This document shows, piece by piece, positions 25,975 to 46,172 of a DNA stretch of 64,000 bases; the first letter of the stretch is position 1; each line of letters opens with the position of its first letter. This DNA is from a virus. A model generated the notes under the pieces. It was not told the origin of the DNA, ran no database searches, and worked only from the letters and a program-made list of their open reading frames with translations. The position numbers were made by a program, and so were the translations under genes. The DNA lies in IMG/VR virus record IMGVR_UViG_3300046780_000088, positions 22,783-86,782 of that record, one strand, 5' to 3'.

Positions 25975-26083
25975 GGACGGACACGGACAAGCCTATAGGC
26001 TTTTGTCCTGTCCTGTCCAGAGTGAGCGGTCACTATGGACTGGTGGACAGAACGGACAAAGTCCGATTTGTCCCGTTTTGTCC
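25975..26083. repeat. Two iterated GGAC(A)/TGTCC palindromes; candidate replication origin
   Basis: GGACGGACACGGACAAGCCTATAGGCTTTTGTCCTGTCCTGTCC (25975-26018) and GGACAGAACGGACAAA-N6-TTTGTCCCGTTTTGTCC (26045-26083), next to an AT-rich tract at the strand switch. Confidence 0.55.
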
Positions 26084-26090
26084 GGTTTGG

Positions 26091-26210
26091 TTGCTTAGGC
26101 AATCATTGTCTCGGCAAGCAATCACGGAACTTTTTGAGTTATTTGTTGTCTACCCTTGGGGAAACCTTTGTGTGCTACAAAACGGATCATCATTGCTTAG
26201 GCAATAATTG
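26091..26210. promoter_or_regulatory. Paired operator-like sites TTGCTTAGGCAAT(C/A)ATTG flanking the rightward promoter
   Basis: Copies at 26091-26108 and 26193-26210. Related perfect palindrome TGCCTAGGCA at 26756-26765. Confidence 0.5.
26124..26168 (+). promoter_or_regulatory. ECF (sigmaE-type) promoter, rightward
   Basis: ACGGAACTT-N15-GTCTACCCTTGGGGAAACCTT. Confidence 0.75.
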
Positions 26211-26291
26211 CTCTGCCAAGCGTCGATCTGTACCGTACAAAAACGCGGTTTTTATTCCCCTTTAAAATCAACGACTTACACAGGAGCAGCA

Positions 26292-26537
26292 ATGTTAACC
26301 ATAAGAATCAATGGGTTAGATGGGAATCAGGAAATCTTCGAGGCGTCGGTCGTCGTGCGCCGTCCTGCATCCCTGCCCGGTAGCGCTGGTGCGCTTGAAT
26401 TCACGTCTGGTGGCGTCGAATGCCATGCTGCTGCTCACTTCGGACACGTCTACGTTATGAACGACCACGGCAAAACGGTCGCGGCATACGATCTTGGGAA
26501 GTGGGATGAGGATAAGCCAGCGGCGCGTAAAGCATAG
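26292..26537 (+). CDS. Hypothetical protein
   Basis: RBS CAGGAG; GHVYVMNDHGKTVAAYDL motif. Confidence 0.65.
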   Translation: MLTIRINGLDGNQEIFEASVVVRRPASLPGSAGALEFTSGGVECHAAAHFGHVYVMNDHGKTVAAYDLGKWDEDKPAARKA

Positions 26538-27013
26538 GCAAAGTGGTAGATTTTATTTGTCCTACATTCTTTACATATTAGGCATTATACGCAGTGCAGA
26601 TTTATCCGCGTTGATTATTAAGGACAATTCACCACTCCCATAATCTTGTCCAACCTGAATTAGAGGGTGTCTAGGACAAGATTCGACATTGTCCATGCCG
26701 AACAGCAGCATGGTCGAGCGGTGCGGTTTGCCAAGTGGGGAATCAGCGATTCCACTGCCTAGGCAACGATCTTCGGTCCACATGGATCAATTGATCCACG
26801 ATGCAAGCGATCGATGGCACGATCCTTGACGCCGACACGATCCATGCCAAAGGATCGTTGAACGGCGCACGGTGCGCGCAGATCGACGGACCACGACCGT
26901 TGGACTCCCCCCGGTTTCGCGTCGGGCCGTTCGACCACCCCCGGCTTCGGTTTTGTTCTGAACAGCGGCGCATGTCGTGCATCTGTGCCGGAAAATCAAA
27001 AAAAGGAAAAAAG

Positions 27014-27151
27014 ATGCAGATCGTCTTGATCGTGCTTTTGGTTTTGCTTCTTGCTGGCGCGTTCCCGATATATGGATGGGCAGGACCGTACGGATTGGTT
27101 GGTACGCTTCTTATCATCGTTCTGATTCTCGCGTTGCTCGGCGCTCTCTGA
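27014..27151 (+). CDS. Small membrane protein, DUF3309-like
   Basis: MQIVLIVLLVLLLAGAFP.YGW.GPYGLVGTLLIIVLILALLG; RBS AAGGA. Confidence 0.7.
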   Translation: MQIVLIVLLVLLLAGAFPIYGWAGPYGLVGTLLIIVLILALLGAL

Positions 27152-27471
27152 ACATCGCATTATGTCCATCGCCTCTGTTGCACCGAAAGATGTGCATCAA
27201 GCGTTGGATTTCCCTTTCACCGCGCGTCGAGCTTCGCTCGTTGAAAACAAAACATTGATCAAAGTGTCCGTTGCATCCGCCGTCAGGCGAGGAAGACCGT
27301 CAGCGGGCACGATGTTAACTCAGCCGACCGAGGGGTCGCGGTGTTCACGCACCGAACTGTGATACCACAACTGTGGTGCTGATGTAATAAATCACAGGTG
27401 AACAGAAGTTAAAGCAGAGCAAGCGACATGGGATGAAATTTCCAGAAAATCCAAAAAAGGAGAATATCCAA

Positions 27472-27804
27472 ATGTTGAACATACTGTTTGCAGTATTGAT
27501 GGCAATTCCGTTAACGTTCGTAAGTTGCCAAGCGAGGGCAGAGGATCACCGTGTTGGACCAGTGAACGGCCCGAACGTGACGATACAAACTGATCGTGAG
27601 CATGTATTCCCGCGCCACATCGAAGTACATCGTCATCACTTTCATAGCTATCGACATGGGCGCACTGAGTTTGGTGTTGTGATCGCAGCACCGTGGGTTC
27701 CGGGTCCGGGATATGCAGCGCGATCCGCATGGTGTCCTGATCCTGCCGGATATTATCCAGACGTGCAAGTTTGTTTTCAACCGTGGGTTCGAGTGATCAA
27801 CTAA
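27472..27804 (+). CDS. Secreted protein with C-terminal WCPDPAGYYPDVQVC motif
   Basis: Signal peptide and RBS AGGAG. The motif resembles small proteobacterial exported proteins. Confidence 0.65.
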   Translation: MLNILFAVLMAIPLTFVSCQARAEDHRVGPVNGPNVTIQTDREHVFPRHIEVHRHHFHSYRHGRTEFGVVIAAPWVPGPGYAARSAWCPDPAGYYPDVQVCFQPWVRVIN

Positions 27805-27818
27805 TGAGGAAAAATAGA

Positions 27819-28737
27819 ATGGTACATAAACACGAAGGTCAGACCAAGGTTCAACCGCCGAACGATTCGGCCTATCCGGGTCCGTATTTGCAAGTCGCCG
27901 ACTTGAAAGTCGATGATGCGAAGTATATTCAAAAGCGTGCTGGTTCAGTTTTCAATTCCATCGTCAAGGGCGATCAAGCGGCGAAGAATGATCTGATCAA
28001 TGCAGCGATGCAAGGCGCATACCGCGATGCTTCGCCGGGTGATACGCAACCGCAAGTGATTGCTCCGAACTTCGATGATTCGCAATACGCCAATCAAAGT
28101 GTGATCGATGTTGTTGCGGCATTCAACAAATTCAGACATCCGAATCGGTGATTTCACCAGCGACAAGTATTGTCATCGTCGGAGTGAGTGCGCAGACAGC
28201 GTTGCTCGCTCTTTGGGCGTTGGGCATCGAGCGATGGCCTTGGTTCATCAATCTGCTCCCGCTTGAAGCACTGATCGTATTCGTGCTTGGGCTGAGTGTG
28301 TATCTGGTATCAACGAAATCGAATCCATTTCAGTGAAGGAAAACATCATGGCAAAATACGGAAGAGTACCGCAAGAAAAAGATGCAGTCGCACCGAAGGG
28401 CGCGTTCGGACAACCGAATGGCGATGGATCGCACAACGACAAGCCTGATTTCGTTGGACAGGTTGTATCGAGTGACGCGAGGGCCACACACCGCGTTGTG
28501 AAGTCGGTTGGCAATCAGCGCGAAGCGGTTGCGCATTTCGCGCCGGTTCCGCAAGATGCGTCGGCATTCGAAGCGGCGGTAGAAGCTGCGAAGGTTTTGT
28601 CGAAGGAACAACCGGGTGCGACGTTCGATGTCGAAGGTCCGAAACCTGACGATAAGGCAGAAACGTCGTTCGTCGTGGAGACACCAAAACCGAAGGTTGA
28701 AGCGGCAAAGACTGAGACAACTTCTGCGAAGACGTGA
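27819..28737 (+). other. Hypothetical ORFs (27819-28151, 28148-28336, 28348-28737)
   Basis: Tiled plus-strand ORFs with RBSs. Confidence 0.55.
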
Positions 28738-28876
28738 GCGAAGCGCAATATTCATTCACTGACCTTGTGATCGCGTTCTGGATGGGCGCGATCTTTTTGT
28801 ATATGCTGCTGATCATAATGGCCGGTATCCAAGTGATGAAAAACAAACCGCCGAACGAACCGCCGACAGGCACGAC

Positions 28877-29380
28877 ATGAAGATTAAGAAGACGCGAAGC
28901 GACAAAGGCGTGCATAAACCTGCATCCGAAAAGAGTTTGCAAGCGCTGGTGAAGTACCGAGCGGAACATCCGGGCGAGAAAATTGGTGGTATACCGTTGG
29001 TAGTGTTCGATGCAAAGCAGTTGCAGACGATCACGAAGTTGCGCGCAGTAAGCACCCCGATTAGGGCTATTGCTCGCGCGATGGGCGTGTCGAACATGAC
29101 GTTCAATGCGATGCGCGAACGGCAACCGGAAGTTCAGGACGCACTCGATGCTGGCGACGACATGCTGTACAACAGGATCATTTCAGGTCGCACAGGATTG
29201 CTCAACGAGAAGAGTTTCGTTGCGAAGATTTTCTTAGCGAAGGCGTTGTTAGGACTACGCGATGGCGAATCAGTGCCGGGTAATACCGGGCCGCGCATAG
29301 TCATCAACATGCCCGGAGCGCAACCGCTGTCGAAGGTGATCGAGGGACAGGTGATCAGGGAAGATGACGACGAAAAATAA
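28877..29380 (+). CDS. Putative terminase small subunit
   Basis: HTH IRAIARAMGVS..F, AKIFLAKALLGLRD and C-terminal IVINMP; upstream of TerL. Confidence 0.6.
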   Translation: MKIKKTRSDKGVHKPASEKSLQALVKYRAEHPGEKIGGIPLVVFDAKQLQTITKLRAVSTPIRAIARAMGVSNMTFNAMRERQPEVQDALDAGDDMLYNRIISGRTGLLNEKSFVAKIFLAKALLGLRDGESVPGNTGPRIVINMPGAQPLSKVIEGQVIREDDDEK

Positions 29381-29724
29381 ATTCAGTCCGCGCGTCGGCG
29401 ATCCGAATTTCAACCCGCGTGCGTACTATGAGCGTGTGTATCTCAAAGACATCGAGCGTGACATCGACATGAAGGACAAGCTCAAGAAGGATGCAGCATG
29501 GCGGAAGATGATCAGGGACAAACACAATGAAACTGCTTGACTATCCCGGACTGACGATTGAAAAGTTCGATGACGGTACAGTTACCGTCAGTTTGTTCGA
29601 TCAGTATGTGGAATTTACGAACGAGGAATTTTTGTTCATGATGAAAGATTTGAATGGGAACATTGCACATGATGCGCGCATGGAGCGCGAGCGACCATCG
29701 CCGGTTGCCGTAGCTTGACGCCAT

Positions 29725-29802
29725 CTGTGCGTAGCTCAGTCAGGTCAGAGTACCCGGCCCGGAACCGGGAAGTCGAAGGTTCGAATCCTTCCGTACAGAC
29801 CA
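29725..29802 (+). tRNA. tRNA-Pro (CGG)
   Basis: Acceptor CTGTGCG/CGTACAG (C1-G72, A73), anticodon arm CCCGG-CCCGGAA-CCGGG, GGTTCGAATCC, CCA. Confidence 0.88.
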
Positions 29803-29821
29803 TTTCCAAGAGGAAATTATC

Positions 29822-31094
29822 ATGAATACAACCGTTGTAACACTGAATTATTTCTTCGTACTTGCTGCTACCGTTGTGATGTGGGTTGCGGCATTCAATC
29901 CTACCGTCGATGCAAACCATAAATTTTCGCTCGCAATAAATTGGATGTGTCTTAGCTTTGCACTTCTTCTGACTGCGTGGTTCTTCAAGTAAGTGAAGAA
30001 CTGCACTTACGGTTGTACGGGAAAGTGTTTCGATAATCATTCGTTCGATTGTTCGGTTTGTGGTAGCAAATCTTCGGCATGTTACGGTATTGATAACGTA
30101 TGGTATTGCGTGAAGTGCTGGCTTGAGAGAGTTCTATGATCGAGTACGTTCTGGTTATGGTGGTTGGCAGTCAACTGGCGTTTGCTACCGACGTTCGTAC
30201 AGATGAAATGCTCATCTTTACGAAGCTTGCTGTATGTGAGCAAGCGAAAGTGAGGATGGAGAAAGTTGCTGCGAAAGTGATGAAGGAAAATCCGCAGTTC
30301 GACAAAAGCTTGACGCCTGTGATTGAATGCATTGATCGGCAGAAGACACCTTGGGCCGATGAACCAACAGAAAAGAAAACGCCGATGCTGAACGAAGAAC
30401 AATTCTTTCAGTACGGCAACAAGCAAGGTGATGCATAATGGTTCGCGCATTTCAAGATACTGGTAACGGTACAGCAGCACCGGCAACTTTCACTGGACAA
30501 GTGAAAGCAAATGGTGAATCTCCAACCGACAACAAGACGTATTCTGCAACGTATCGCGTGACTCGATATTGGGGTGTGGCATTCATTCAAGCAGAAGCGG
30601 TAGCGTACTTTCATACCAAAGCAGACGCCGATGCTGCTGCTGCAACATTGAATGCAACGGCACATGGTGAAGTATATCGTTCTGAAGTTTCTCAATGAGG
30701 AAATTGATATGTCAATGAATGGTCCGAAGTCCGCGAACAAGAAACAAACATTCGATATTCAACCAAAACTGATTCCTGATGGATATGCACAATTACCAGC
30801 AGCATTGGCGGTTACACCGCCCGGTGTTCCAGTAAGTGTTCCGTTGGTTCCAAATGCAATGCCTGTGTATCCTTGTAAGAATTGATGTAAGTGAGAGGAA
30901 TGCGTAACATCGCTCTTTGGGCGTCGAACGAATCACCAAATTCGCAATCCGCGCCAATGGTTTCGATAAACCAAAAAGACGATTGTGTTGTGTTCACAGT
31001 GCGTGATGCCTTCGACACAACAGCGATTGCCTTCATGCCGATAAAAGACTTCGTGAAGTTTGCTGCGACATTTATTCAAGAGGCTAGATCATGA
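29822..31094 (+). other. Short hypothetical ORFs (29822-29992 membrane, 30136-30438, 30438-30698, ~30709-30885, 30891-31094)
   Basis: Tiled ORFs with start/stop overlaps. Confidence 0.5.
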
Positions 31095-31534
31095 CAGGCT
31101 GGACTGATGCAGCAAGAGCCGCGAGTCTTGCAGTTCGTGAGGCTGAAGCGAAGAATCACAATGCAAATGGAAAAAGAGCAGGGCAGGAAACACATCATCA
31201 AGCAATTCGTGAAGTATCAAAATGGTATCACGGCGACATTAATGCGATAAGAGGACAATCAATAAATGCAAAGAGTTTGATGACTCCAAGTTGGGCAGTA
31301 ACGAATTTAAAGTCAGCTTATAATTATGCAACTCAAGCATCATACAAAAAATCTTTAATTCCTGAACGCAAAGCGATATTCTCAGTTAGACCGATAACAA
31401 AAAATTCAACTCGTATGTCGGAAGGTCGCGGTCGCGGTAGTATGTCAAAAGAAGTTATTGCTTCTCCATATCGGATGAGTATTGTGTCAAGATTACCGCA
31501 AGCTCGCGGCCATGCATCAAGAGGAAAATATTGA
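31091..31534 (+). CDS. MTGWTD-leader protein 1; ADP-ribosyltransferase-like cargo
   Basis: Shared leader, then WYHG..W.VTNLKSAYNYA..IFSVRP..E. Confidence 0.6.
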   Translation: MTGWTDAARAASLAVREAEAKNHNANGKRAGQETHHQAIREVSKWYHGDINAIRGQSINAKSLMTPSWAVTNLKSAYNYATQASYKKSLIPERKAIFSVRPITKNSTRMSEGRGRGSMSKEVIASPYRMSIVSRLPQARGHASRGKY

Positions 31535-31707
31535 TGACAGGCTGGACTGATGACGCGCGGAAGTCGTCGCTCGATGCACGTCGGAACAAGAAGACAGGAA
31601 AAAAGAAGACGTACGTTCGCAATCGCGTAGCGAAAACTCCGCGCGAAAAGGCAATCGATAAATTTGGTGAAGCCTATGTCGAAACTTTCATGGATGAACT
31701 GAAATGA
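31534..31707 (+). CDS. MTGWTD-leader protein 2 (57 aa, absent from the ORF track)
   Basis: MTGWTDDARKSSLDARRNKKTGKKKTYVRNRVAKTPREKAIDKFGEAYVETFMDELK*. TGATG and ATGA overlaps with its neighbours. Confidence 0.8.
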   Translation: MTGWTDDARKSSLDARRNKKTGKKKTYVRNRVAKTPREKAIDKFGEAYVETFMDELK

Positions 31708-32096
31708 CAGGATGGACTGACCAAGCACGCGAGGCGTCGATTGCTGCACGCCACAATGCCAATGGCAAAGCACCCGGTCAGGAAGCGCACCATGCCGCGT
31801 TGAAAGCGGCGCAGACGCGCAGAGCGAATGTCGCGCACAACGATCACCGTCATGCTGTGAAAGCTGCTGAAGATGCGTTGCTTCGTGCACGTTCGCTTCA
31901 TGAAGTTCCGAAGTGGGCGAACCTGAAAGCTGTGAGCAACTTCTATCTTGCCGCTGCACAATCGCATGGTCGATACCAAGTCGATCACATCGTACCGTTG
32001 AACGGTCGCAAAGTGATGGGTTTGCATGTGGAGAATAATATGCAACTGTTGACTCCGTGGCAGAATAAATCAAAAAGCAACAGGTTCAAATCATGA
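31704..32096 (+). CDS. MTGWTD-leader protein 3; HNH endonuclease cargo
   Basis: PKWAN..YQVDHIVPLNG..VMGLHVENNMQLL...NKSKSN. Confidence 0.85.
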   Translation: MTGWTDQAREASIAARHNANGKAPGQEAHHAALKAAQTRRANVAHNDHRHAVKAAEDALLRARSLHEVPKWANLKAVSNFYLAAAQSHGRYQVDHIVPLNGRKVMGLHVENNMQLLTPWQNKSKSNRFKS

Positions 32097-32413
32097 CAGG
32101 CTGGACTGACGCTGCGCGTGAAGCGAGCTTGGCAGTTCGTGAAGCCGAAGCGAAAGATCATAACGCCAACGGGAAAGCTCCCGGACAGGAAACGCACCAT
32201 GCCGCATTGAAGGGCGCAGTGACGCCGACATGGGCAACACATACTGAAGCTGCACGAAAGATGGCAGCGTTGCAATCGACAAGACCGCATTCAATTGAAA
32301 AACGTTTCGGTAGTAACGGGCCAAATCCTGATCAATTGACAGCATATAAAGCAGAAGTGAAGTCTTGGAATTCTGCATATCGAAATGCGAAGAAGGGATT
32401 GATGCCTAGATGA
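32093..32413 (+). CDS. MTGWTD-leader protein 4; unknown cargo
   Basis: Shared leader; overlaps the TerL start (ATGA). Confidence 0.8.
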   Translation: MTGWTDAAREASLAVREAEAKDHNANGKAPGQETHHAALKGAVTPTWATHTEAARKMAALQSTRPHSIEKRFGSNGPNPDQLTAYKAEVKSWNSAYRNAKKGLMPR

Positions 32414-33849
32414 GCCAAGAAGTAATAGCACGCACACCAGAAAAAGTAGTAGGAAGACCAAGACTCGATACACCGCCGCCCGGAACCGATCTGTTGACGA
32501 TGTCGAAATTTCAGAAGCGCGTGCTTCGCGTTCCTGAAGAAGTCGATTTGTTTCTTGGTGGTGGTCGTGGTGGCGCGAAGTCATACACGATGGTCTTGCT
32601 CGCTCTTCGGCACGTCGAACAGTATGGTCCAAAGGCACGAATTCTTTACATCCGGCAAACACATGCGGGGTGCGCAGACTTCGAATCTTTGTGTCTCGAA
32701 GTTTTTTCGTTGTTGTATGGTCGCACCGTAAAATACAATTCTACGAAGGGACTATTCAAGTTCCCGAACGGCGCGACTCTCGAAATCAATCAGCTTGAAA
32801 CAGTATCAGACTATACGAAATTTCAGGGGCGCTCATTTACGCTGCTGATGATTGACGAAGCAGGGCATTATGCGATGCCTGATATGTTGGACAAGCTTCG
32901 TTCGAACTTGCGTGGACCGGCAGACATGCCTACACGCATTGTGATCGCAGCAAATCCGGGTGATGCAGGACACCATTGGTTAGCTTCACGGTACGTTTTT
33001 CGTGCGGCACCGTGGACTATCTTCAAGGAACCGAACTCGCAACGTTTCTTTTTGTATGCGCCTTCAACGTTCCTAGACAATCCATTCATCAACCAAGCTG
33101 AATACAAGGCTCAACTTGTATCGTCTTGTCCAAGCGATCCTGAACTGTTGCGCGCGTGGCTTGATGGTGATTGGGCGATTGCTCGCGGTGCGTACTTCGG
33201 TGGATGTCTTGAAGAATCGCGTAACGCGGTAGACTTCTGGAATTACAAGATACCTGCTGGTTGGGATTGGTGGCTTGCGCACGATTATGGTTCGACCGCT
33301 CCGTCAGTAACGTACATCGTTGCGAAGTCACCGGGTGGCGAAGGACCGGATGGAAAATGGTATCCGCGCGATTCACTTGTACTGGTCGATGAATTTGCAA
33401 CGAACGAAGCTGGACATCTGAACAAGGGACTTGGTTGGATGGTTCCGCGACTCGCAGAAGAAATCATCAAGCATTTGTGTATGCCGTGGAATGTTGCCGC
33501 AACTGGTGTCGCTGATGATGCTTGCTTTGCCAAAGGTGGACATTCTCGCGGTTCGATTGCTGATGAGTTTGCACGATGTGGATTGATCTTTGTTCCTGCC
33601 AAGAAGGGTGATCGTCTTTCAGGCTTGACAACGTTGAAGCGTTTGTTAGGCGATGCAGGACAGATGGATGTACCCGGTTTGTATATCTCGCGTTCGTGTT
33701 CGTATTTTTGGGCTACCGTTCCATACTTGGCGCGCGATCCTCGTAAGATGGAAGATTTGGATTCAAAGGGACCGGATCACGCTGCTGATGCAGCACGGTA
33801 CGGTGTATTGCGCGAAGAGAGAAGCGCAACAATGAAGGCGATGTTCTGA
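32410..33849 (+). CDS. terL: Terminase large subunit
   Basis: Walker A GGGRGGAKS, Walker B MIDEAG, ANPG, HDYG, DHAADAARY. Confidence 0.93.
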   Translation: MSQEVIARTPEKVVGRPRLDTPPPGTDLLTMSKFQKRVLRVPEEVDLFLGGGRGGAKSYTMVLLALRHVEQYGPKARILYIRQTHAGCADFESLCLEVFSLLYGRTVKYNSTKGLFKFPNGATLEINQLETVSDYTKFQGRSFTLLMIDEAGHYAMPDMLDKLRSNLRGPADMPTRIVIAANPGDAGHHWLASRYVFRAAPWTIFKEPNSQRFFLYAPSTFLDNPFINQAEYKAQLVSSCPSDPELLRAWLDGDWAIARGAYFGGCLEESRNAVDFWNYKIPAGWDWWLAHDYGSTAPSVTYIVAKSPGGEGPDGKWYPRDSLVLVDEFATNEAGHLNKGLGWMVPRLAEEIIKHLCMPWNVAATGVADDACFAKGGHSRGSIADEFARCGLIFVPAKKGDRLSGLTTLKRLLGDAGQMDVPGLYISRSCSYFWATVPYLARDPRKMEDLDSKGPDHAADAARYGVLREERSATMKAMF

Positions 33850-34008
33850 AAGGAAAACCAATGACAAATTTGACGGTTGTAAATCCGAATGAACTGAATC
33901 CTGATACATCACCGCCGCCAGTTGTGATAGGTGAAGCAAGCGAATCGCCGGATGATTCTGATGCTGATGATGTTGTTGATGTGCCGCAAGGCTCTAAGGT
34001 GTAAATGA

Positions 34009-34820
34009 ATGTCTATGACCTTAGATCGGTTCAAAACTGAACCACACAAAATCTATTCGTCAGGTTGGTTTGTATTCTGCTTAGTGATTATAGCAGCTTT
34101 GGTTTTGGAATTGCTGCATCAACAAACAATAATTCTCGATCAAACAAAGATCGATCAAGAACTCCAAACGATAATCAACAATGAAGAAAATATAATTGCT
34201 CACCAAGGTCAGTATGATCAGATAATCAAGATGCTTCTTTCAAACCAAGAAAACATCATTAAGAAGCTCGATGACCACAACACCGGAAAATCGAAATGAT
34301 GACAGCTACTACTACACAACAGAGACAACGTAAAAAAGACGCACGAAAAGTAATCACCACTGCACAGACTACAGCGAAGATGTTGAAGAGCAATGCAGAT
34401 GCAGTTGCTTCGGCGACAGCAAATGTATTGAAGAGTAACGCCAAGCTTGTTTCTGATGCTTTGGAAGACACGGCAAAAAATACAGCAGATATTGTTTCAA
34501 AAGCAATTGAAACTGCTAACCATAAAAATGAAGAAATATTGCGACAACGATCTGATGAAATTGTTCTTAAAACAGAAGCGCATTTTGACAAGGCTTCAGA
34601 CCGAATCGATTCATTGGAAGATAGAATTGATGGAGTAGAAAAGAAGGTTCAGGACAGAATTGATAAGGTTGAAAAGAAGGTTGATGAAGGAAATGAAGAT
34701 ACGAAGAAGGTTTTGGCAATAGTTAGTGCAGGAAAAATTGGTGGCAAATTCATGGGTTGGCTTGCCGCGCTGATTGCTTCTATTGCTGTTGCATGGTCGT
34801 ATCTTATTCATGGAAAATAA
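34009..34820 (+). other. Two membrane-anchored coiled-coil ORFs (34009-34299, 34296-34820); possibly holin-like
   Basis: Each has one hydrophobic segment. The second has a C-terminal TM after a coiled coil. Confidence 0.45.
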
Positions 34821-35034
34821 ATTTGGAGTGTGAGCAAAATGTCATCGACTCGCCCACCGAAAACTCTCGATTACGATGCACAAGAAGTTAGCATGTTGAG
34901 AGATTTGTATACCAAGATGGCAAAGAATAATGAAATGGATCAGGATAGCGAAGGCTTCGTCACCGTCGAACAAGTTTTCGACGAATTTGCGCGAGTGCGC
35001 GATTTCTACAAAATGAAGCGAAGGAAACATTAAA

Positions 35035-35442
35035 ATGACAGGATGGACAGACGAAGCGAGGGCCGCATCGCTCGCAGTGCGTGAGGCTGAAGCAAAAGAC
35101 CACAACGCAAACGGCAAAGCACCGGGACAAGAAACACATCATCAAGCAATTAAGGCGGCGAGTAATTTAACTCGTCAGCATTTCGTTGCTGCCGCGAATC
35201 AGTTGCGCGAATCTGGTGCAAGCGCTGAAGCTGTTTCGCGCGCTGCTAATGCATTCGCTATGACGAATCCTAATTTTGATCGTGGTCGTTTTGTTGCTGC
35301 CGCTACAAAGGGACTGACGAAGGGACTTGATATTCGCTCGCAATCAAACAAAGGATTCGCAAAAGCTTCGCGTGTTGCAGCTAACGTGATGAAAAATTAT
35401 TCGAGCGGCAGTCCCTATTTGACCCCTTCTAGGAGTCGATAA
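35035..35442 (+). CDS. MTGWTD-leader protein 5; TRQHF..NPNFD..RF cargo
   Basis: Shared leader plus LTRQHFVAAA...FAMTNPNFDRGRFVAAA. Confidence 0.8.
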   Translation: MTGWTDEARAASLAVREAEAKDHNANGKAPGQETHHQAIKAASNLTRQHFVAAANQLRESGASAEAVSRAANAFAMTNPNFDRGRFVAAATKGLTKGLDIRSQSNKGFAKASRVAANVMKNYSSGSPYLTPSRSR

Positions 35443-35443
35443 C

Positions 35444-36004
35444 ATGACCGGCTGGACTGACGAAGCACGACAAGCATCACTCGATGCACGGCGCGGCAAT
35501 CCAAAGGATCATAATGCCAATGGTGCTGTGAGGGGGCAAGAAACTCATCAAGCAGCGGCGCGAGTATTTTCGCGCAACAATTTACCGAAGCTTATGCGCC
35601 AATCAAATTGGTCGATTCTTTCTGCCAATCGTGGTGATGCAGTATCATCGACCAAGAACACGATGCATCAAACACAACTTGCAAACGATCTTCGTAGACA
35701 AGGGGCATCATTCATCAAGGTAGAAGGACATTATGGTGGCAAGCCTGAAATTTCGTATGCCGTAACTGGAATTTCTGCGAGAGCAGCATACGCACTTGGT
35801 GCTAAATACAAACAAGATTCTATTTTGACCAATCGTGGTCTGATTTATACGACAGGCGCGAAAGCTCGCGCTGGCGTTCGTACACCATCTACAGGAAGAA
35901 TGGCAGTCGGAAAGTCCGCAACCGGAGATTTCTATTCGCGTATTCCGTCAACAGGCGCGCGTTTCTCTGCCGGTTTGAATTTCGACAAATACAAGACAAG
36001 GTAA
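35444..36004 (+). CDS. MTGWTD-leader protein 6; SAM lyase/DUF3293-like cargo
   Basis: ILSANRG..N....LANDLR..G..VEGHYG..PEISYAV...LGAKYKQDSIL. Confidence 0.68.
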   Translation: MTGWTDEARQASLDARRGNPKDHNANGAVRGQETHQAAARVFSRNNLPKLMRQSNWSILSANRGDAVSSTKNTMHQTQLANDLRRQGASFIKVEGHYGGKPEISYAVTGISARAAYALGAKYKQDSILTNRGLIYTTGAKARAGVRTPSTGRMAVGKSATGDFYSRIPSTGARFSAGLNFDKYKTR

Positions 36005-36010
36005 TAGCCT

Positions 36011-37576
36011 ATGTACGGTGATACGAATCCCTCTCCCGCGCCAGCTATTGCGCGTGCGGCAGTTGCAGCATTGCTTGGTGGCGGCGGAAAAAATCCTGTA
36101 GGGATTCCGACTGCGCGTTACACCGAACTTGCCGCAGAGCGTTTGTTGCCCCGTACATTGATGGGCGGCACCGAATCGATGCGTGCTGCCGGAACATTGT
36201 TCCTACCGAAACATCCTGCCGAAACACAAGCTTCGTACGACTCTCGTATCAATGCAACGTTCTTGTATGGCGGTTATGCTGAAACTGTTTTCCGCATGGC
36301 AGCTAAGTTCTTCGAAGAACCGATTGCAATGAAAGATGATGTACCGATCAAGATGCAGCAACTTGCATTGAACATCGATGGTCAGGGTCGTGCATTGACT
36401 CCATTCACAATGGACTTGGTGAAAGAAGCAATGGTCGATGGGATAGCATTCATTCTTGTTGATCACCCTAAAGTAGCACCAGATTCTACGCAAGCAGATG
36501 TGATAAAAGCTGGATTGCGTCCGTATTGGATTCTTGTTAAAGCAGATGATGTCATTGGTTGGCAGACAACTGCTGACTCTGGTGCGCAACTTCTTACGCA
36601 AGTCCGCATCAAGGAAACTGTTGTTGTCCCTGATGGATTGTTTGGCGAGAAAATTGAGAAGCGCGTTCGTGTTTTGTTTCCCGGACACTTCCAAGTTTAC
36701 ACACAGATTGTAAACTCGCGTGGAGAATCAGATTGGATATTATCTGATTCTGGTGATACATCGTTCGATGAAATTCCTTTGATCCCTTTCTACACCAATC
36801 GTTGTGGATTCATGGAAGGTATGCCGCCGCTGAAGGTTCTGGCGGAAATGAATCAAGAACATTGGGTATCGTCTAGTGAACAACGTCGTGCGTTGACGTT
36901 CTTGCGTTTCGCAATGCTTTGTGCAATTGGTGTTGATGGTAAGACATCGACACTTGAAGTTGGCCCTGATCGAGTGTTGTACGTTCCTCTCGGTGGCGAT
37001 GCAAAGTACGTTGAACATAGTGGTAAGGGAATTGAATCTGGTCAAGCTGATTTGGATTCGATAGAGAAGCGCATGACTAGCGCTGGAATGAAGTTGAGAA
37101 TTGAGAATGCAGGACAAGTTTCTGCTACAGCGAGTGCAGTTGATAGCGATGATGTGAATGCAGTATTGAAAGCAATTGCCAAAGAACTTGAAGACGTGCT
37201 TGCGCAAGCAGCACAATTCACTGTTGAATTGCTTGGGTTGCCGGATGGCGGTTCATACGATGTGTTTGATGATTTCGCTGATAGCGGCGCACCGGGCACA
37301 ATAACTGAATTCAATGCAATGGCGGTCGCAGGAAATATCAGCAAGCAGACGTTGTGGGAAGAATTGCGCCGTCGCCATATGCTCAGTGAGGATTTCGATC
37401 CCGAAACAGAACAAGCAAATCTTGATTCAGAATTGCAGTCGTACATGAAATCAGTAGCACAACAGTCGGCATTGGTTGCTAATGCAGTGCCGCCATCACC
37501 CACTTCTGGCGCTGCGCCAACACCTGTTGCACCAACACCGCCTAAGAAGTCGAAATTGAATATCAAACAAAATTGA
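36011..37576 (+). CDS. Portal protein (DUF4055-type)
   Basis: LMGGTESMRAAG..FLPK..E...Y..R, NIDGQG, ILVDHP, RPYW; position after TerL. Confidence 0.88.
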   Translation: MYGDTNPSPAPAIARAAVAALLGGGGKNPVGIPTARYTELAAERLLPRTLMGGTESMRAAGTLFLPKHPAETQASYDSRINATFLYGGYAETVFRMAAKFFEEPIAMKDDVPIKMQQLALNIDGQGRALTPFTMDLVKEAMVDGIAFILVDHPKVAPDSTQADVIKAGLRPYWILVKADDVIGWQTTADSGAQLLTQVRIKETVVVPDGLFGEKIEKRVRVLFPGHFQVYTQIVNSRGESDWILSDSGDTSFDEIPLIPFYTNRCGFMEGMPPLKVLAEMNQEHWVSSSEQRRALTFLRFAMLCAIGVDGKTSTLEVGPDRVLYVPLGGDAKYVEHSGKGIESGQADLDSIEKRMTSAGMKLRIENAGQVSATASAVDSDDVNAVLKAIAKELEDVLAQAAQFTVELLGLPDGGSYDVFDDFADSGAPGTITEFNAMAVAGNISKQTLWEELRRRHMLSEDFDPETEQANLDSELQSYMKSVAQQSALVANAVPPSPTSGAAPTPVAPTPPKKSKLNIKQN

Positions 37577-37590
37577 AGGAGTCTTGAAAA

Positions 37591-38283
37591 ATGATGGACA
37601 AATTAAATGCAACAGACGGTGTTGGTGCAGCAGTACATCGCGGGGCCGCATTGTCTGAATCGATGAATGCAATTGGTCGCTATGATGTGACTTGTGTTCG
37701 ACCGCTGAAAGAATATGAAGGTGAATATCTTCGCTTGCTCGGTATTGCGATGGCATGGGACAAGATCGGTAAGGAACGACTTGTTGAACGCTTCCTTGAA
37801 CAAGCTAGAGAATTGCCGCATCAGATTGTGTGGGAAGATACAATTCACAACACGGTCTGTACTGCCGGGAAGAATCTTGCTCTCGATACTTTTCTTGCTG
37901 GCTCTTCGTACACAGTTGTTGGTCCGTATATTGGTTTGATCAGTTCAACTTCGTATTCGGCAATTGCCGCTGGCGATACGCAAGCATCGCACTCTGGTTG
38001 GCTTGAAGCTGGAAATGCAAACGCTCCGACATATACATCGCCTCGTAAGACTGCCGCATGGAGTGCTGCTTCTGCTGGTTCGAAAGCGTTGTCTTCGAAT
38101 GCCTCGTTCGCTATTACTGGATCGGGAACCGTCAAAGGTGCGTTTATGATTTATGGTTCAGGTGCATTGACTACCATTGACAACACTGCCGGAACGCTTC
38201 TGTCTGCTGGTCTGTTCACTGGTGGCGATAAAGTTGTTGCCAACCTTGACACGCTTAACGTCAGCTATTCGCTGGCAATCTAA
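37591..38283 (+). CDS. Putative virion structural protein
   Basis: HNTVCTAGKN...GTVKGAF...DTLNVSY; beta-rich, in the late operon. Confidence 0.6.
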   Translation: MMDKLNATDGVGAAVHRGAALSESMNAIGRYDVTCVRPLKEYEGEYLRLLGIAMAWDKIGKERLVERFLEQARELPHQIVWEDTIHNTVCTAGKNLALDTFLAGSSYTVVGPYIGLISSTSYSAIAAGDTQASHSGWLEAGNANAPTYTSPRKTAAWSAASAGSKALSSNASFAITGSGTVKGAFMIYGSGALTTIDNTAGTLLSAGLFTGGDKVVANLDTLNVSYSLAI

Positions 38284-38291
38284 TAGGAGAT

Positions 38292-38718
38292 TTGGTTATG
38301 TTGAAAAAGGGATCGAAGGTAAAACAGATTGTCCAAGCTGCGATTGAAGGTGAAGTTGTGCGCGTCGAACGTGATGGCGATGGCGAACCAACAGGGAATT
38401 ATCTTGTTGAATGGGAAGCTGATGGTGTGACTCATTCCAAATATTTCTCTGAAAAAGAAGTTGAGGAAGTTGCAAATGGATAACGCCACGTTGATTGCCG
38501 ACATTACTACGTCTTTGCAAGATGCTTGCACTTTAGCAAACGTTCAATCGCCGATGCAGCAACTTGTGACAGCAAACGCTTCACTGCAAACTGCATTAAC
38601 TCATGCTACACAATTACAGACTGCTCTTGATGCTGAGACAGCAGATGATGTTGCAAAAGCAGCGCAGTTAGCGACAGCGAAACAGAAGGCACAGGATTTG
38701 GTTGCTTCACTTAGTTGA
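38292..38718 (+). other. Two small late ORFs (38292-38483, 38476-38718)
   Basis: RBS AGGAG/GAGG; tiled. Confidence 0.55.
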
Positions 38719-38730
38719 AAGGATTTGTTC

Positions 38731-40758
38731 ATGCCAACTGTTACATACGACACAATCGTAACTGGTCTTCAACGCGCTATAGTAGACGCGCAAACTTTGG
38801 CTGGACAAGTAATTACTCCCCCGCCGCCCCCGCCGCCTGTTAATGGAACCCCGATTGGGACGTACTATCCGCCAAACTTTACTGAGTCTGGTTTTGGTGA
38901 TGCTGCTGGACCGCCATCATGCGGTGTAACAGCTAGAATTGGTCAACAGTTGAAACCGCCTTATCCGGCATTTCTTCCGGGATTTTATTTAGGTGATGGT
39001 GATGCTCCGGTGCGTTGGACGACAATCAATAAACCTGATTGGTATGATACCGCTGGAACATTGTATGGTTCTGTTCCATACGCTAAGACTACGGTTACTG
39101 CTGCGCCAGTTCATTTAACTGAATTTTCGGTTGATCTTGATGCAACTTCATTAGTTAAGGAATTTGCAAGCAAACCGAATTATGGATTTGTAGTTGCTGC
39201 TGACAGTGCAAACTCTAACACAATCAAATGGCGTTCTTCACATGCATCAGTAAATTTGCCGGTGCTTATTGTTGATGGTGTGACGATTCAATGTGAACGT
39301 TCTACATGGTTTTCGACTAGCAGTGAGACATCGTTTGCTGGCAATCCTGAAATGAGAACGGCACATAATACCGATTTTGCTTTGCTGCGATTCGATCTTA
39401 GAACTATCGACGTATCGAAAGTCCAAAAAGCAACACTTCGTATGTGGACGTTTGATCAATATGGTAACGTGACAATCGGATTATATCGTTTGTGGAATCC
39501 GGCTGATCCTGCGAGCGTTGCACCTGTGCAACTTGGCATTGCTGCACAATATCCGCTTGATGTCGGAATTGAAACTAATTCTGCTGTTGCGTTTGTTCAA
39601 GCCGTCAAGGATAAAAATTATTCTTCCCTTTGGGGTTCTAGCTCCACTGGCGACAATTCAACATTCTTTACACCGGCAGACTTGGCAGCGCTTGGTTTAC
39701 CGCCTATGCCGGGGGCTACTGGAAACGCTATTGCTGGTGTCTTCAAAAAAGGTGGCCCGCAAAGTACCTTAGAAGCTCACTGGTCGCCGTGGCGTAGGGG
39801 TCAGGGTACAACCGGACCTTGGGAAACCGGGCAGCAGCTACGACCGCCTGCACCGATGGAAGAGGCATATTTCCGATATTACCTTATGATCCACGGCAAC
39901 CCGGAACCTGATGGTGGTAAGTTGTTTGGATTCGATGGTCGATACCGCGATTGGGGAACACCGCCTACACCTGAAAGTCTTGTTGGTGCTGGTCGTGGAA
40001 ATTCAGCTTCATTTTGTGATTTGCTTACTGGATATTCTGCGCGTGGAAATCACAATGCTGAACCTGTAGCTGGATCGCCTTGTAAGGGTCGTATTGGTGT
40101 TGGTATGAGCGATTGTTACATACCGGACCAAACAGGACCATATGGACCGGCATTAACAGTTGATCTAAATTATCTTGGTCAATTGAAAAAGGATGTGCCG
40201 CACTGTATTGAAATGCATTTGAAGTTGAATACAGTGACACATCCTGAAGAAAAACAGCAACTCATTACTTCTATTACTGCTGTAAATGGTGTTGCTACAG
40301 CTACTCTTGCACAACCATGTACGTCGCCATTGTACGTTACCGGAGCAACTATGGCTGTTGGTGGTGCTGGTGGATATTCTTCACTTGCATACAATGGTGA
40401 ATTCAAAATCACTGTTATCAGTCCGACTCAATTTACATATCCAGTTCCAACAACTGTTGCTCCTGTTGCTGCACTAGGTTCTAGTCCAAGCTATCCGTTG
40501 CGATTCACTTGCTGTTTGAGTACTGGAAACTTCGACGGTATTTTGGAATGGTTCATCAATGGTCGTTTGGCAATGCGTTATTCCGGTATGCGTTTTCGTG
40601 GTTCAGCATGGCTTCCTGATGGCAAATCGAAATATGGAATTGACAATTTCTGGTTTGCATTCTTCCAAGGTGGCCCAAACAATCCGACAGAAGACTACTG
40701 GATGTTTGCCAGTGGCATTGTGATCGCCGATAAATACATTGGACCTATGGTTCATTGA
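38731..40758 (+). CDS. Virion-associated protein with polysaccharide-lyase-like C-terminal domain
   Basis: EEAYFRYYL..GGKLFG..HCIEMHLKLNT..DGILEWFING..FFQGG; N-terminal ALLRFDL..KATLR domain; poly-Pro linker. Confidence 0.55.
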   Translation: MPTVTYDTIVTGLQRAIVDAQTLAGQVITPPPPPPPVNGTPIGTYYPPNFTESGFGDAAGPPSCGVTARIGQQLKPPYPAFLPGFYLGDGDAPVRWTTINKPDWYDTAGTLYGSVPYAKTTVTAAPVHLTEFSVDLDATSLVKEFASKPNYGFVVAADSANSNTIKWRSSHASVNLPVLIVDGVTIQCERSTWFSTSSETSFAGNPEMRTAHNTDFALLRFDLRTIDVSKVQKATLRMWTFDQYGNVTIGLYRLWNPADPASVAPVQLGIAAQYPLDVGIETNSAVAFVQAVKDKNYSSLWGSSSTGDNSTFFTPADLAALGLPPMPGATGNAIAGVFKKGGPQSTLEAHWSPWRRGQGTTGPWETGQQLRPPAPMEEAYFRYYLMIHGNPEPDGGKLFGFDGRYRDWGTPPTPESLVGAGRGNSASFCDLLTGYSARGNHNAEPVAGSPCKGRIGVGMSDCYIPDQTGPYGPALTVDLNYLGQLKKDVPHCIEMHLKLNTVTHPEEKQQLITSITAVNGVATATLAQPCTSPLYVTGATMAVGGAGGYSSLAYNGEFKITVISPTQFTYPVPTTVAPVAALGSSPSYPLRFTCCLSTGNFDGILEWFINGRLAMRYSGMRFRGSAWLPDGKSKYGIDNFWFAFFQGGPNNPTEDYWMFASGIVIADKYIGPMVH

Positions 40759-40773
40759 AAGTGAATACATAAA

Positions 40774-41130
40774 ATGGCAGCTACTAAAAACAAGCGGACT
40801 CTTCTTGCTTCAACGAGTATTGCCGCAGCAACACCGACTGATGGTACTGAAATTGATCTTTCAACGAAGTATGGTGGCGTTCTTACTGTAAAATTGACGA
40901 ATGGTGGAACTGGTCCTACGGTTCCGATCAACGCTTATGTATACATTGGTGGCGCTACAACTGAAAAGAAATTGTTCGCCAAGCTTCTTGGTGATTCAGT
41001 AAACAGTAGCGTTAATGAATATGCAGTTGATATTCCTGCTGGCACAATGTTTTTGAACATCACATTTAAGGACAATACTGCACAAGCGGTGACTTGTGAG
41101 GCATTCTTGCAAGAACTGACTACGATTTAA
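40774..41130 (+). CDS. Putative virion protein
   Basis: Beta-rich ORF in the late operon. Confidence 0.55.
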   Translation: MAATKNKRTLLASTSIAAATPTDGTEIDLSTKYGGVLTVKLTNGGTGPTVPINAYVYIGGATTEKKLFAKLLGDSVNSSVNEYAVDIPAGTMFLNITFKDNTAQAVTCEAFLQELTTI

Positions 41131-41133
41131 GCT

Positions 41134-43479: not shown

Positions 43480-43491
43480 GGGTAAACTTCA

Positions 43492-44613
43492 ATGACACTG
43501 CATACGCATTCAGATAGATTGGAGCGCTGGTTGGGCGCAGAAGAAGTTGCGAATTTGTCTAGAGCGATGAAGGATTTTTATTGGCCTATCGCCGTGCATG
43601 GTGTACCCGGTTCTGTTTTTGCAATGCCGGGTGGAGATTTTACTGGTGAGATTCGCGCTGGAAAAGAAGTGAGCGCAGTAGAACGTGCATCAGATACGCT
43701 TCGCAGAATGCGTAATGCTCAACGCGCTCGCATGGCAATGTCGCAACGACAACTTGGTGCATTCTCTAATCTTTCAGCCTTGATTGCGGCAGCTACAGGT
43801 GGCAAGGCGCAAAATTTCACATACACCAAAACAGGTTCGGCGGTTGCTGCGATTGGTAATGCTGCTGACCTTTGGACTTCTGCTGGTCAACCGGGTGCTG
43901 GTGCTGCTGGTAGTGCAGCGCCGGGGGGCAAAGCATGGACAAATGCTGATGCAGGAAGTTTGAAGTATGCTAATCCTGTAAACGCAAACACCGGACACTT
44001 TGCTACCGGATATGTTTCAGCTAGTGTTGTTTCGAACACACTATTGCTTTACGACAGATTGCTTTCAGTTGTAAAGACGATGGCATCGACAACAACTGAA
44101 GCAGTGACAGGAACATTTTCGCGTTATCAAAGTGCAACGACTACTAATGCAGATTACATTGGCGGGAATTTCTGTTTCCCAAGTAATCCAACAACGATTT
44201 TGGCAGCAACAGCACACAACTGGACTGTGTGCCAATACACCGATCAAGCAGGTAATACTGCAAATAGTTTCCCTACAATTGCTGGTCTTTCAGCTTGCGC
44301 TGTTCATGCAATCGATCTGGCTGTTGGCAATTGGTTTATGCCTCTCGCCTCTGGCGATGTTGGAGTCAAAGCGTTGACGCAAATGCAATGCGATGCTTCG
44401 GTTGCAACCGGAACAATCGACTTCAATGTCGGACATCCAATTGCATTCTTCCCGGCACCAATTGCAAATATGATTTGTGTGATTGATGGTATCAACACAG
44501 CATTTAATTTGACGAATATATATGATAATGCCTGCCTAGCATTTCTCGAAATGCCAAAACCGGCAACGACAGCTACGACTTATGGTGGACAAGTAACCAT
44601 AGTTGCTGAGTAA
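43492..44613 (+). CDS. Putative virion structural protein
   Basis: LLLYDRL..YTDQAGNT..MPLASGDVGVK motifs seen in phage structural proteins. Confidence 0.55.
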   Translation: MTLHTHSDRLERWLGAEEVANLSRAMKDFYWPIAVHGVPGSVFAMPGGDFTGEIRAGKEVSAVERASDTLRRMRNAQRARMAMSQRQLGAFSNLSALIAAATGGKAQNFTYTKTGSAVAAIGNAADLWTSAGQPGAGAAGSAAPGGKAWTNADAGSLKYANPVNANTGHFATGYVSASVVSNTLLLYDRLLSVVKTMASTTTEAVTGTFSRYQSATTTNADYIGGNFCFPSNPTTILAATAHNWTVCQYTDQAGNTANSFPTIAGLSACAVHAIDLAVGNWFMPLASGDVGVKALTQMQCDASVATGTIDFNVGHPIAFFPAPIANMICVIDGINTAFNLTNIYDNACLAFLEMPKPATTATTYGGQVTIVAE

Positions 44614-44616
44614 TAC

Positions 44617-45858: not shown

Positions 45859-46172
45859 TGGATTACATAATTGGCGATGATGGATACCCACACACTGATG
45901 CAGACATTGCCGCTAATTTGCCATACGGTTTCGATCTGACTCAATGGGTTTTGTCCAAAGGTGAATCTGGTATTGCTTCGGCAACTTGTACAGCAGATGC
46001 AGGAGTGACCAAGGTTGGATCGGTTGTGATTGTTGGTAGCAAGATTGCACAACAATGTGACTTGTCTACATGCTCCATCAACACTGCATACAAGTTGAAA
46101 TTCGCATGGGTTTCGTCACCGAATGGTTTTAAGGATGAGAGGACAATCGTTCTTGATGTCAAGCAACGTTGA
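45858..46172 (+). CDS. Putative fibre-adaptor-like small protein
   Basis: LPYGFDLTQW..GESGIASAT..DERTIVLDVKQR. Confidence 0.5.
   Translation: MDYIIGDDGYPHTDADIAANLPYGFDLTQWVLSKGESGIASATCTADAGVTKVGSVVIVGSKIAQQCDLSTCSINTAYKLKFAWVSSPNGFKDERTIVLDVKQR

Follow-up and report, generated by a model that had tools for sequence, protein, structure and literature searches.

Why should six small proteins with unrelated C-terminal parts, encoded beside the terminase and portal genes of an uncultured soil phage, all open with the same peptide? The question is raised by IMG/VR record IMGVR_UViG_3300046780_000088, a linear sequence of 86,782 bases that is 84% complete by the CheckV estimate. The stretch analyzed here, called the window, comprises 64,000 nucleotides (nt), bases 22783-86782 of that record, and coordinates refer to it unless another locus is named. 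One soil metagenome run, from which it probably derives, has the whole window in its contigs, and fragments of relatives occur in two further soil or rhizosphere runs. Six plus-strand open reading frames (ORFs), starting at 31091, 31534, 31704, 32093, 35035, and 35444 and named ORF1 to ORF6 in that order, begin with MTGWTD. The leader that they share is probably a targeting-type peptide on proteins of the head module, which would make it a known architecture carried by a new sequence motif. What is new is that this leader is bipartite and that its first block is the local form of a widespread motif.

The six starts had been reported in a sequence-only reading of the window, and the ORF list, a six-frame scan, and a search of the whole record all confirm their coordinates. 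In the six-frame scan of the window, GW[TS]D occurs six times, each time at one of the six ORF starts, and HN[AS]NG and GQE[TAS]H occur five times each, all within the five long leaders. A protein search with the leader (42 amino acids, aa) against all 86,782 bases of the record hits exactly six places (E 4.5e-25 to 5e-3). Residues 1-16 are common to all six ORFs and about 40 residues to five of them; beyond about residue 40 the six sequences are unalignable, so that alignment bears out the earlier description of five leaders conserved over about 40 aa and then diverging. Among the five long leaders, 21 of 43 columns are invariant and mean column identity is 80%. At the codon level, all 10 pairs of leaders have a proportion of synonymous differences (pS) of 0.64-0.92, at or near saturation, vs. 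a proportion of nonsynonymous differences (pN) of 0.11-0.30, and DNA identity between copies extends over unbroken runs of no more than 8-21 nt, depending on the pair. Saturated synonymous sites together with low pN indicate that the leader copies are old and have been maintained by selection at the protein level. The conserved entity is therefore the peptide, as had been proposed, and not the DNA; it is under purifying selection, with pN far below pS. A recent DNA duplication is ruled out by the saturated synonymous sites, a chance or non-coding repeat by the whole-record protein search and the pN/pS values, and a secretion signal by the lack of a hydrophobic core (judged by reading). As a separate observation, pS is at least 0.75 in 6 of the 10 leader pairs (31091-35572), at or above the random level for synonymous sites, which may reflect selection against DNA identity of nearby repeats that avoids recombination.

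The leader has two parts: (i) a helical first block, residues 3-16; and (ii) a second block with the pattern G-x3-G-x-E-T-H-H. The two are separated by a stretch of variable length, and the more distant relatives have no HNANG. A leader alignment of 15 rows has M1, T2, G3, W4, T5, D6, R9, A11, S12, R16, G27, G31, E33, and H35 invariant. According to AlphaFold models of ORF5 and ORF6, the leader forms helices at about residues 6-16/20 and 33/34-42, where the predicted local distance difference test score (pLDDT) is about 50 or less; a helix-loop-helix is thus suggested at low confidence. An Atlas search with the leader alone returned generic helical hairpins by structure and no usable feature match. 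Past R16 the window leaders are near neutral (E-A-E-A-K-D). The six proteins that carry them all have an isoelectric point (pI) of at least 9.9, vs. 15 of 109 other, roughly called genes.

A profile built from the five long leaders was searched against 1.84 billion representative proteins (E <= 1e-3), and its 40 matches comprise small leader proteins and larger proteins. Nine of them are small and start with the leader, ORF1 of the window among them. The other 31 are proteins of 194-1253 aa that align at profile positions of about 2-24 only, often in two to four stretches. An additional leader-profile search, which scored the 8000 candidates sharing most words, returned 19 proteins. Scanned with a motif pattern, 30 of the 31 large proteins have one to four internal copies. 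The consensus over 63 internal instances is [LV][AV]N[TIV]GW[TS]D[EA]ARxA[SA]L[AE][VA]R[RQ]A[KN]AAAR. The pattern demanded Trp and a basic residue at +5, and this basic residue is Arg in 63/63 instances; Arg also stands at +12 in 63/63, although the pattern left that position free. An upstream Asn, as [LV]-A-N before x-G-W, is present in 35 of the 63 instances, and along the general motif arginines form a stripe at i, i+7, and i+14. The pattern G-W-[TS]-D-x-A-R-x-A-[SA]-[LI]-x-x-R describes each of the six window copies, in which W, R(+5), and R(+12) are kept. Elsewhere the motif is found in one to six copies within large proteins, which are encoded by uncultured phages and by contigs from bacteria of the Planctomycetes-Verrucomicrobia-Chlamydiae (PVC) group. 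Of 94 motif instances scanned, 13 are followed by the E-T-H-H second block, and each of the 13 belongs to a small protein from the window's lineage. The second block is lineage-specific. The leader had been taken for a single 38-aa unit; it proves instead to be a widespread motif of about 16-25 aa to which a lineage-specific second block is joined. A match to the second-block pattern in protein P0018 (1242 aa, NCBI source) was rejected as unrelated. The same protein has, besides two motif copies, three copies of K-Y-S-E-D-Q-P-R-D-x-R-G-R-W-[ST]-[GS]-G-G between its modules, and this peptide may be a second linker or tag.

Many of the large proteins that contain the motif are prohead protease/scaffold-MuF fusions of the Mu type, and some have ART or methyltransferase modules. 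Among the 31, Pfam models identify Mu-like_Pro in seven, ADPrib_exo_Tox in two, ART in two, and Phage_Mu_F and methyltransferase families in one each. PHROG matches are to the head maturation protease phrog_328 (seven), phrog_595 (four), and the minor head protein phrog_115 (two), with single matches to head morphogenesis, portal, DNA methyltransferase, and Alt-like ART families. For instance, protein P0033 has a motif copy at 216, followed by an ART domain (275-447) and a second copy at 558, and in P0039 copies at 156 and 678 bracket a methyltransferase. A Cys knuckle resembling the C-terminal part of MuF, defined by our own pattern, is present in 11 of 35 large proteins, and in 10 of these 11 a motif copy lies after it. 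The positions of the families and of the knuckle therefore outline a common layout of protease, MuF knuckle, motif, acidic region, and motif.

The motif was also followed in DNA. A degenerate DNA pattern for G-W-T-D-E-A-R-A-A matched seven IMG/VR loci, every one with motif-bearing frames. Locus L017 encodes two proteins, of 1210 and 325 aa, that each have two motif copies, and downstream of them a major head protein (phrog_1005, E 8e-29); the same record has Mu-like_Pro in a 1237-aa frame. Locus L014 has three separate motif genes after a capsid-like gene. As a side observation, the three genes of L014 (6860-9832; also in L016 and L018) have the internal form W-S-D-A-A-R-A-A-A-[IVL]-A-A-R-[RK]-A-[RK], after which comes G-x-[DN]-W-[KR]-x-A-[AG]-R, a conserved stretch that is another lineage-specific second block. 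In species genomes the same DNA pattern matched 37 stretches, of which 10 have the full motif: six from Lentisphaeraceae, one from Victivallales, two from Verrucomicrobia, and one from another metagenome-assembled genome. The remaining 27 look like chance matches in Ala/Arg-rich genomes. Mu-like_Pro was found in 5/5 full-motif genomes tested vs. 0/14 control genomes, and in three of the five PVC genomes the protease domain lies within the motif-bearing frame itself. Phage MuF was found in three of five IMG/VR motif records tested, above the cut-off in one. Among GenBank phages, motif protein P0021 had no match, and P0012 matched through its protease domain only.

Besides the window's lineage, the only lineage found with the motif at residue 1 is that of two actinophage-like contigs, L062 and L063, with a guanine-cytosine content of 62%. 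Two small motif-start ORFs flank an HNH gene there, just upstream of the terminase gene (L062:870-1626; L063:300-1056, minus strand). One encodes a protein of 101 aa starting MTGWTDAARKASAAAR, and the other a protein starting M-A-W-S-K-A-A-R-D-A-A-I-A-A-R-R. The HNH gene shares 53% identity with gp144 (annotated HNH endonuclease) of Gordonia phage Keelan and lies about 0.8 kb upstream of the terminase, which is 41% identical to Gordonia phage terminases. The arrangement parallels that of the window, although the lineages are unrelated. Keelan has no such small leader proteins, the L062 leader protein has no match among GenBank phages, and the L062 HNH protein gave no match to PDB sequences.

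Closer relatives keep the leader on recognizable cargoes. Orthologues that retain it were found for ORF3 (P0004 and P0016), ORF4 (P0002), ORF5 (P0003 and P0009), and ORF6 (P0025, P0047, and P0048), and two further proteins, P0005 and P0017, have the MTGWTD leader on two additional cargoes. These small-protein relatives all start MTGWTD and are encoded on JGI contigs of 1-2.5 kb; in two of them the adjacency of ORF5 and ORF6 is inferred from equal contig sizes of 2520 and 2550. A search for related loci confirmed none in viral contigs (leader profile, ORF5 family) or in metagenome contigs (ORF5 family). Contigs of another soil run record changes at the locus itself. A 231-nt contig of soil run X2 joins position 32090 to 32419 through 16 other letters and skips 328 nt with ORF4, so that the end of ORF3 is joined to the start of the terminase gene; it therefore represents a close relative without ORF4. 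Another contig has an ORF5-like leader and then a different continuation. The relatives thus show cassette-like gain or loss of leader genes. A weaker joint, with 37 letters on one side, connects 30879 to 35035.

Within the reach of the searches made, the motif appears to be undescribed. At the thresholds applied, the leader and motif regions match nothing in Pfam, PHROG, NCBIfam, or PADLOC; the earlier reader, too, knew of no named family for the leader. The motif strings returned only unrelated nutrition papers in a full-text literature search, whose coverage excludes the supplementary alignments of the study of polyvalent phage proteins (PMC5512222), and the passages of that study on linkers, repeats, processing, and packaging do not describe the motif. 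The 7.5-kb leader region has no GenBank phage match by blastn.

The six leader genes lie within a head and packaging block. Genes of the window are on the minus strand to about 26 kb and on the plus strand thereafter, and all genes described below are on the plus strand. ORF1, ORF2, ORF3, ORF4, and the terminase large subunit gene (terL) are chained by stop/start overlaps (TGATG, ATGA, ATGA, and ATGA), ORF5 and ORF6 are spaced by 1 nt, and the portal gene begins 6 nt after ORF6. These overlaps and gaps agree with the sequence-only reading, in which four copies were chained into terL and two stood before the portal gene, and profiles confirm the identity of both. The terminase (32410-33849) matches Terminase_3 (E 3.8e-10), Terminase_6N (E 4.8e-5), and phrog_979 and phrog_2 (about 1e-23), and the portal (36011-37576) matches phrog_145 (E 6.4e-106) and DUF4055 (E 6.8e-28). 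Each leader protein has one cargo, of 40-146 residues.

ORF1 (31091-31534; 147 aa, pI 10.7) consists of a full leader, residues 1-40, and a 107-aa cargo. It had been called ART-like; the cargo matches no Pfam, PHROG, NCBIfam, or PADLOC family, the ART families included, and the label retains only weak language-model leads from Atlas features (Tox-ART-HYD1, 0.87; PARP, 0.86), both under the tool's 0.9 mark. Homologue searches of protein collections return only ORF1 itself. ORF2 (31534-31707; 57 aa, pI 10.0) has the first leader block alone (MTGWTDDARKSSLDARR), followed by a Lys-rich tail. Its length is counted from an ATG, and the ORF list places the start one codon earlier, at a TTG. It is the weakest leader match of the six (E 5e-3); its start overlaps the ORF1 stop, with AGAGGA upstream, and it is a putative gene, since no homologue was found. 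ORF4 (32093-32413; 106 aa, pI 9.9) has a full leader and a 66-aa cargo with no family assigned. ORF5 (35035-35442; 135 aa, pI 10.5) has a full leader and an all-helical cargo of the TRQHF...NPNFD type, whose AlphaFold2 model (15 rows, pLDDT 56.5) is too weak for fold claims. ORF5 has no match among 50,697 GenBank phage records, and the idea that its cargo is a common stand-alone phage protein is accordingly unsupported.

Two cargoes can be named with more confidence. ORF3 (31704-32096; 130 aa, pI 10.6), whose leader is six residues shorter, has an HNH nuclease core, as had been suggested. It matches phrog_26577 (E 5.4e-15), phrog_1035 (endonuclease VII, E 6e-7), phrog_589, and phrog_144; Pfam HNH scores 13 bits, below the 21.4 cut-off, and a PDB sequence search gave one chance-level match (E 0.24). 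By tblastn it matches 98 GenBank phage records, some annotated HNH endonuclease, among them the "HNH endonuclease" of Achromobacter phage Mano (E 9e-8). In the two cultured phages whose HNH relatives were translated, Ralstonia phage BOESR1 and Escherichia phage KS_A3, the protein starts differently and does not include the motif. The leader was therefore joined to the HNH core, and on these two sequences we reject the idea that it is the HNH family's own N-terminus. ORF6 (35444-36004; 186 aa, pI 10.7) has a full leader and a cargo that Pfam assigns to DUF3293 (E 5.5e-9; 37 bits, above the 25 cut-off), a family for which a literature search found no publication. The earlier label, S-adenosylmethionine (SAM)-lyase-like, is a sub-threshold lead: S-AdoMet_lyase (PF23780) scores 22.7 bits, below its 28 cut-off, and the orthologue P0048 has a precomputed PF23780 match. 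A model of ORF6 from a two-row alignment, likewise too weak for fold claims (pLDDT 40.6), gave no Foldseek match at E <= 0.001; its top PDB match, to 6zm9, a SAM lyase of a phage, was not significant (E 0.18), and PDB sequence searches with the protein and with a four-row ORF6 profile gave no match. A homologue search with the ORF6 cargo returned four close relatives.

The remaining head genes lie further downstream: a MuF-like minor head protein (46123-46950; phrog_241, E 1.6e-30; Phage_Mu_F 28.6 bits, just below the 29.6 cut-off), a head scaffolding protein (47217-47999; phrog_206, E 7.3e-36), and a major head protein (48033-49184; phrog_283, E 6.8e-100; P22_CoatProtein, E 1.9e-12). The Pfam model Phage_Mu_F matches none of the six leader proteins, MuF being a separate gene. 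Prohead-protease families, namely Peptidase_S77 (PF03420), S78, S49, CLP_protease, and Mu-like_Pro, gave no match at E <= 1 in the 86.8-kb record; at its estimated completeness of 84%, this absence is no proof.

The preferred explanation, to which we give a probability of about 0.45, is that the leader is a docking tag that brings its bearers into the assembling head. On this view each of the six small, strongly basic proteins joins a shared address module, formed by its first 40 or so residues, to a C-terminal cargo that can be exchanged. The first helix of the module, T-G-W-T-D-x-A-R-x-A-S-L-x-x-R, is the local copy of a motif found in procapsid-internal proteins of other uncultured phages, and it would dock its bearer to a head component: the inner face of the coat, the portal, the scaffold, or MuF, the MuF-like gene product being a candidate reader. 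Once docked, all six would end up inside the procapsid, remain with the DNA, and exit with it at infection, and their basic charge is proposed to follow from their staying with DNA. The DUF3293/SAM-lyase-like protein, and perhaps ORF1, could in this way act before phage gene expression. Since no head protease is detectable and every copy starts at Met-Thr-Gly-Trp, the tag is probably not removed and the cargoes are encoded separately; T4-style leader cleavage is unlikely in the window phage. Docking, encapsidation, ejection, and early action are all inferred steps. The association with head-internal families, the position in the head gene block, the basic charge, and the cassette variation support this head-loading tag in part, and by association only. 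The sequence-only reading had gone further and seen a plug-in tag for injected effectors. A peptide module on unrelated cargoes in the head and packaging block survives from that proposal, and the recurrence of its motif in head-internal families agrees with it; the position of the HNH gene and the L062/L063 loci speak against a purely injected-effector role.

Several observations weigh against a head-loading tag. GenBank searches found no cultured relative. The motif is absent from six loci of 4-12 kb whose portals are 32-53% identical to that of the window. The head families of the Mu-type motif bearers are not those of the window phage, whose coat is P22-type, whose portal belongs to DUF4055, whose scaffold is a protein of its own, and in which no protease is detectable. 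A partner common to both is therefore not evident, MuF being the one head family seen on either side. The window copies have neither the preceding L-A-N, where Met replaces Asn, nor the basic tail R-A-K-A-A-A-R, so the mode of reading may differ from that of other motif copies. Both structure models of the leader have the low pLDDT given above. Complex prediction, with leader residues 1-45 (15 rows) against the portal and the major head protein, scored 0.00 in two runs in which the controls were not folded, and it weighs neither for nor against binding.

How the leader compares with known systems bears on the same point. All that the diverse T4 internal proteins have in common is a capsid targeting sequence (CTS) that directs them to the scaffolding core; they leave the head together with the DNA, and one of them, IPI*, counters restriction by blocking GmrS/GmrD (PMC3012670). 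The resemblance to the CTS of IPI, IPII, IPIII, and Alt lies in a short shared N-terminal peptide on unrelated, mostly basic, small proteins encoded among late or head genes. On the other hand, the window phage has a P22-type coat, with no gp21-type Peptidase_S77 or other prohead protease found, and its leader of about 40 residues has two conserved blocks and is probably retained on the protein. The T4 CTS is about 10 residues long. Unlike the core motif of the window leader, it is not known to recur inside large proteins.

Polyvalent proteins combine ART, methyltransferase, and nuclease modules on head-module proteins and are predicted to be packaged and injected (Iyer et al., 2017, PMC5512222). 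In several large proteins the motif sits between just such enzyme modules, and the head-module context of the window genes matches. The window phage differs in having one cargo per gene, each with its own tag, rather than a multi-domain chain; it likewise differs from MuF-fused effectors, since no window leader protein has a MuF domain in its chain. The motif lies downstream of Mu-like_Pro in 7 of the 31 large proteins and in 3 of the 5 PVC genomes, which recalls the protease-scaffold of the Mu gpI/gpZ type (PF10123). In Mu the scaffold part lies downstream of the protease part, matching the annotation "protease (I) and scaffold (Z) protein." However, the I/Z protein of Pseudomonas phage Fc22, the only cultured one translated, lacks the motif, and the window phage lacks Mu-like_Pro. 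Encapsulin cargo-loading peptides and the C-terminal capsid-targeting tail of the HK97 protease are short peptides that dock cargo to the inner side of an HK97-fold shell; they have other sequences and are usually C-terminal.

The same evidence can be read in other ways. The leader might dock small basic DNA-acting proteins to the terminase or to the outer portal vertex, in which case they would be packaging helpers and not cargo. Four leader genes chained into terL, two adjoining the portal gene, an HNH nuclease among six strongly basic proteins, and the small leader proteins that flank an HNH gene upstream of the L062/L063 terminase all agree with this, and the last arrangement fits a packaging role as well as it fits head loading. 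Terminase-adjacent HNH proteins assist cos cleavage, as HK97 gp74 does, and the HNH cargo of ORF3 sits where such packaging-associated genes lie. We nevertheless consider this account unlikely. Most motif bearers are of protease/scaffold, MuF, or ART/methyltransferase types, which act in the head or the host and not at the motor; a DUF3293/SAM-lyase-like enzyme has no evident packaging role; relatives of the ORF3 HNH protein occur at unrelated sites, e.g., the queuosine cluster of Escherichia phage KS_A3; and one close relative manages without ORF4. If, on the other hand, the leader were an autonomous N-terminal domain, a helical hairpin that binds nucleic acid or, through H...E-T-H-H, metal, the variable C-termini would tune a set of late proteins that bind DNA or RNA and carry no address. 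The invariant Trp, the two Arg, and the His/Glu cluster (G27, G31, E33, and H35) in 15/15 sequences would suit such a domain, as would the Arg stripe of the general motif and six basic proteins for which no partner was found. HNH and DUF3293 families exist without the leader, however, and cargoes of this kind are more than tails; the motif of large proteins occupies linkers between enzyme domains; and the near-neutral stretch after R16 is poor for DNA binding. An autonomous domain is, in our judgment, distinctly unlikely.

It has also to be asked whether the motif marks a processing site, at which a head protease, or self-cleavage after Asn, would cut polyproteins; the window copies would then be leftover segment ends with little function. 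The Asn of [LV]-A-N stands directly before x-G-W in the 35 instances given above, and motif and Mu-type protease share a polypeptide in the seven large proteins and three PVC genomes already mentioned. Moreover, all 15 small proteins start exactly one residue past the upstream Asn, and without their Met they would begin T-G-W like the predicted product. We consider this explanation very improbable: the five prohead-protease families are absent from the record, yet purifying selection is strong far downstream of any cut, and a cut site would not require 16-25 conserved residues on its C-terminal side. The Asn-adjacent starts are nevertheless suggestive, matching polyproteins that are cut after Asn, of which the window phage encodes the pieces separately. 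A broader form of the head-loading tag would include them. It holds that the G-W-T/S-D-E-A-R...R helix is a head-loading address used across lineages and read by a conserved capsid feature, in cis in PVC Mu-type polyproteins and in trans here. The PVC polyproteins, of a protease-MuF-scaffold/effector type, would be cut just after the conserved Asn, and the soil phage and the actinophage-like lineage would use separate small genes that begin where the cut would fall. We regard this extension as doubtful, though worth stating.

Co-transcription of the leader genes with the packaging genes rests on gene spacing, since a promoter/terminator scan of 26000-38500 was no better than shuffles (promoter-like sites, 6 vs. 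14.8 expected; terminator-like sites, 15 vs. 13.9) and no RNA data set is listed as containing the stretch. The strongest terminator-like hairpin of the region, with 10 pairs and a T run, is at 28769-28793, just before a 167-aa ORF at 28877 that by reading has a helix-turn-helix-like middle and has no PHROG match; the hairpin may mark the start of the packaging/head operon. Between terL and ORF5 (34009-35033) are three small ORFs, among them, by reading, one of 96 aa with a hydrophobic segment and one of 174 aa that is coiled-coil-like with a hydrophobic C-terminus. The PHROG matches here, phrog_18362 and phrog_6701, are of unknown function, and the site is an odd one for membrane proteins. 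The roughly 8 kb between the portal and MuF genes (37591-45858) encode large acidic proteins of 230, 677, 781, 373, and 413 aa, whose only matches are to Disaggr_repeat/CBM96 and, weakly, Laminin_G_3, i.e., sugar-binding-type domains inside a head module.

Phage proteins that travel in the head and are injected along with the DNA are active ahead of all phage gene expression. The understood examples are few: the T4 internal proteins, P1 Dar, the N4 virion RNA polymerase (vRNAP), and MuF toxins. We know of no general address by which such proteins could be recognized from their sequence. If the motif is such an address, it would allow uncultured phages and metagenomes to be searched for virion-delivered effectors, and it would connect single-gene cargoes with giant polyvalent proteins. 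It would also offer a small tag, of 16-40 residues, with which foreign proteins could be loaded into capsids outside a T4 background, and it would place a SAM-lyase-like enzyme, normally an immediate-early function, inside the particle. If the tag recruits helpers of the packaging motor instead, it would represent a new kind of accessory interaction of the terminase or portal. Under either reading, strong conservation and presence in several distant lineages mark a peptide that is apparently undescribed.

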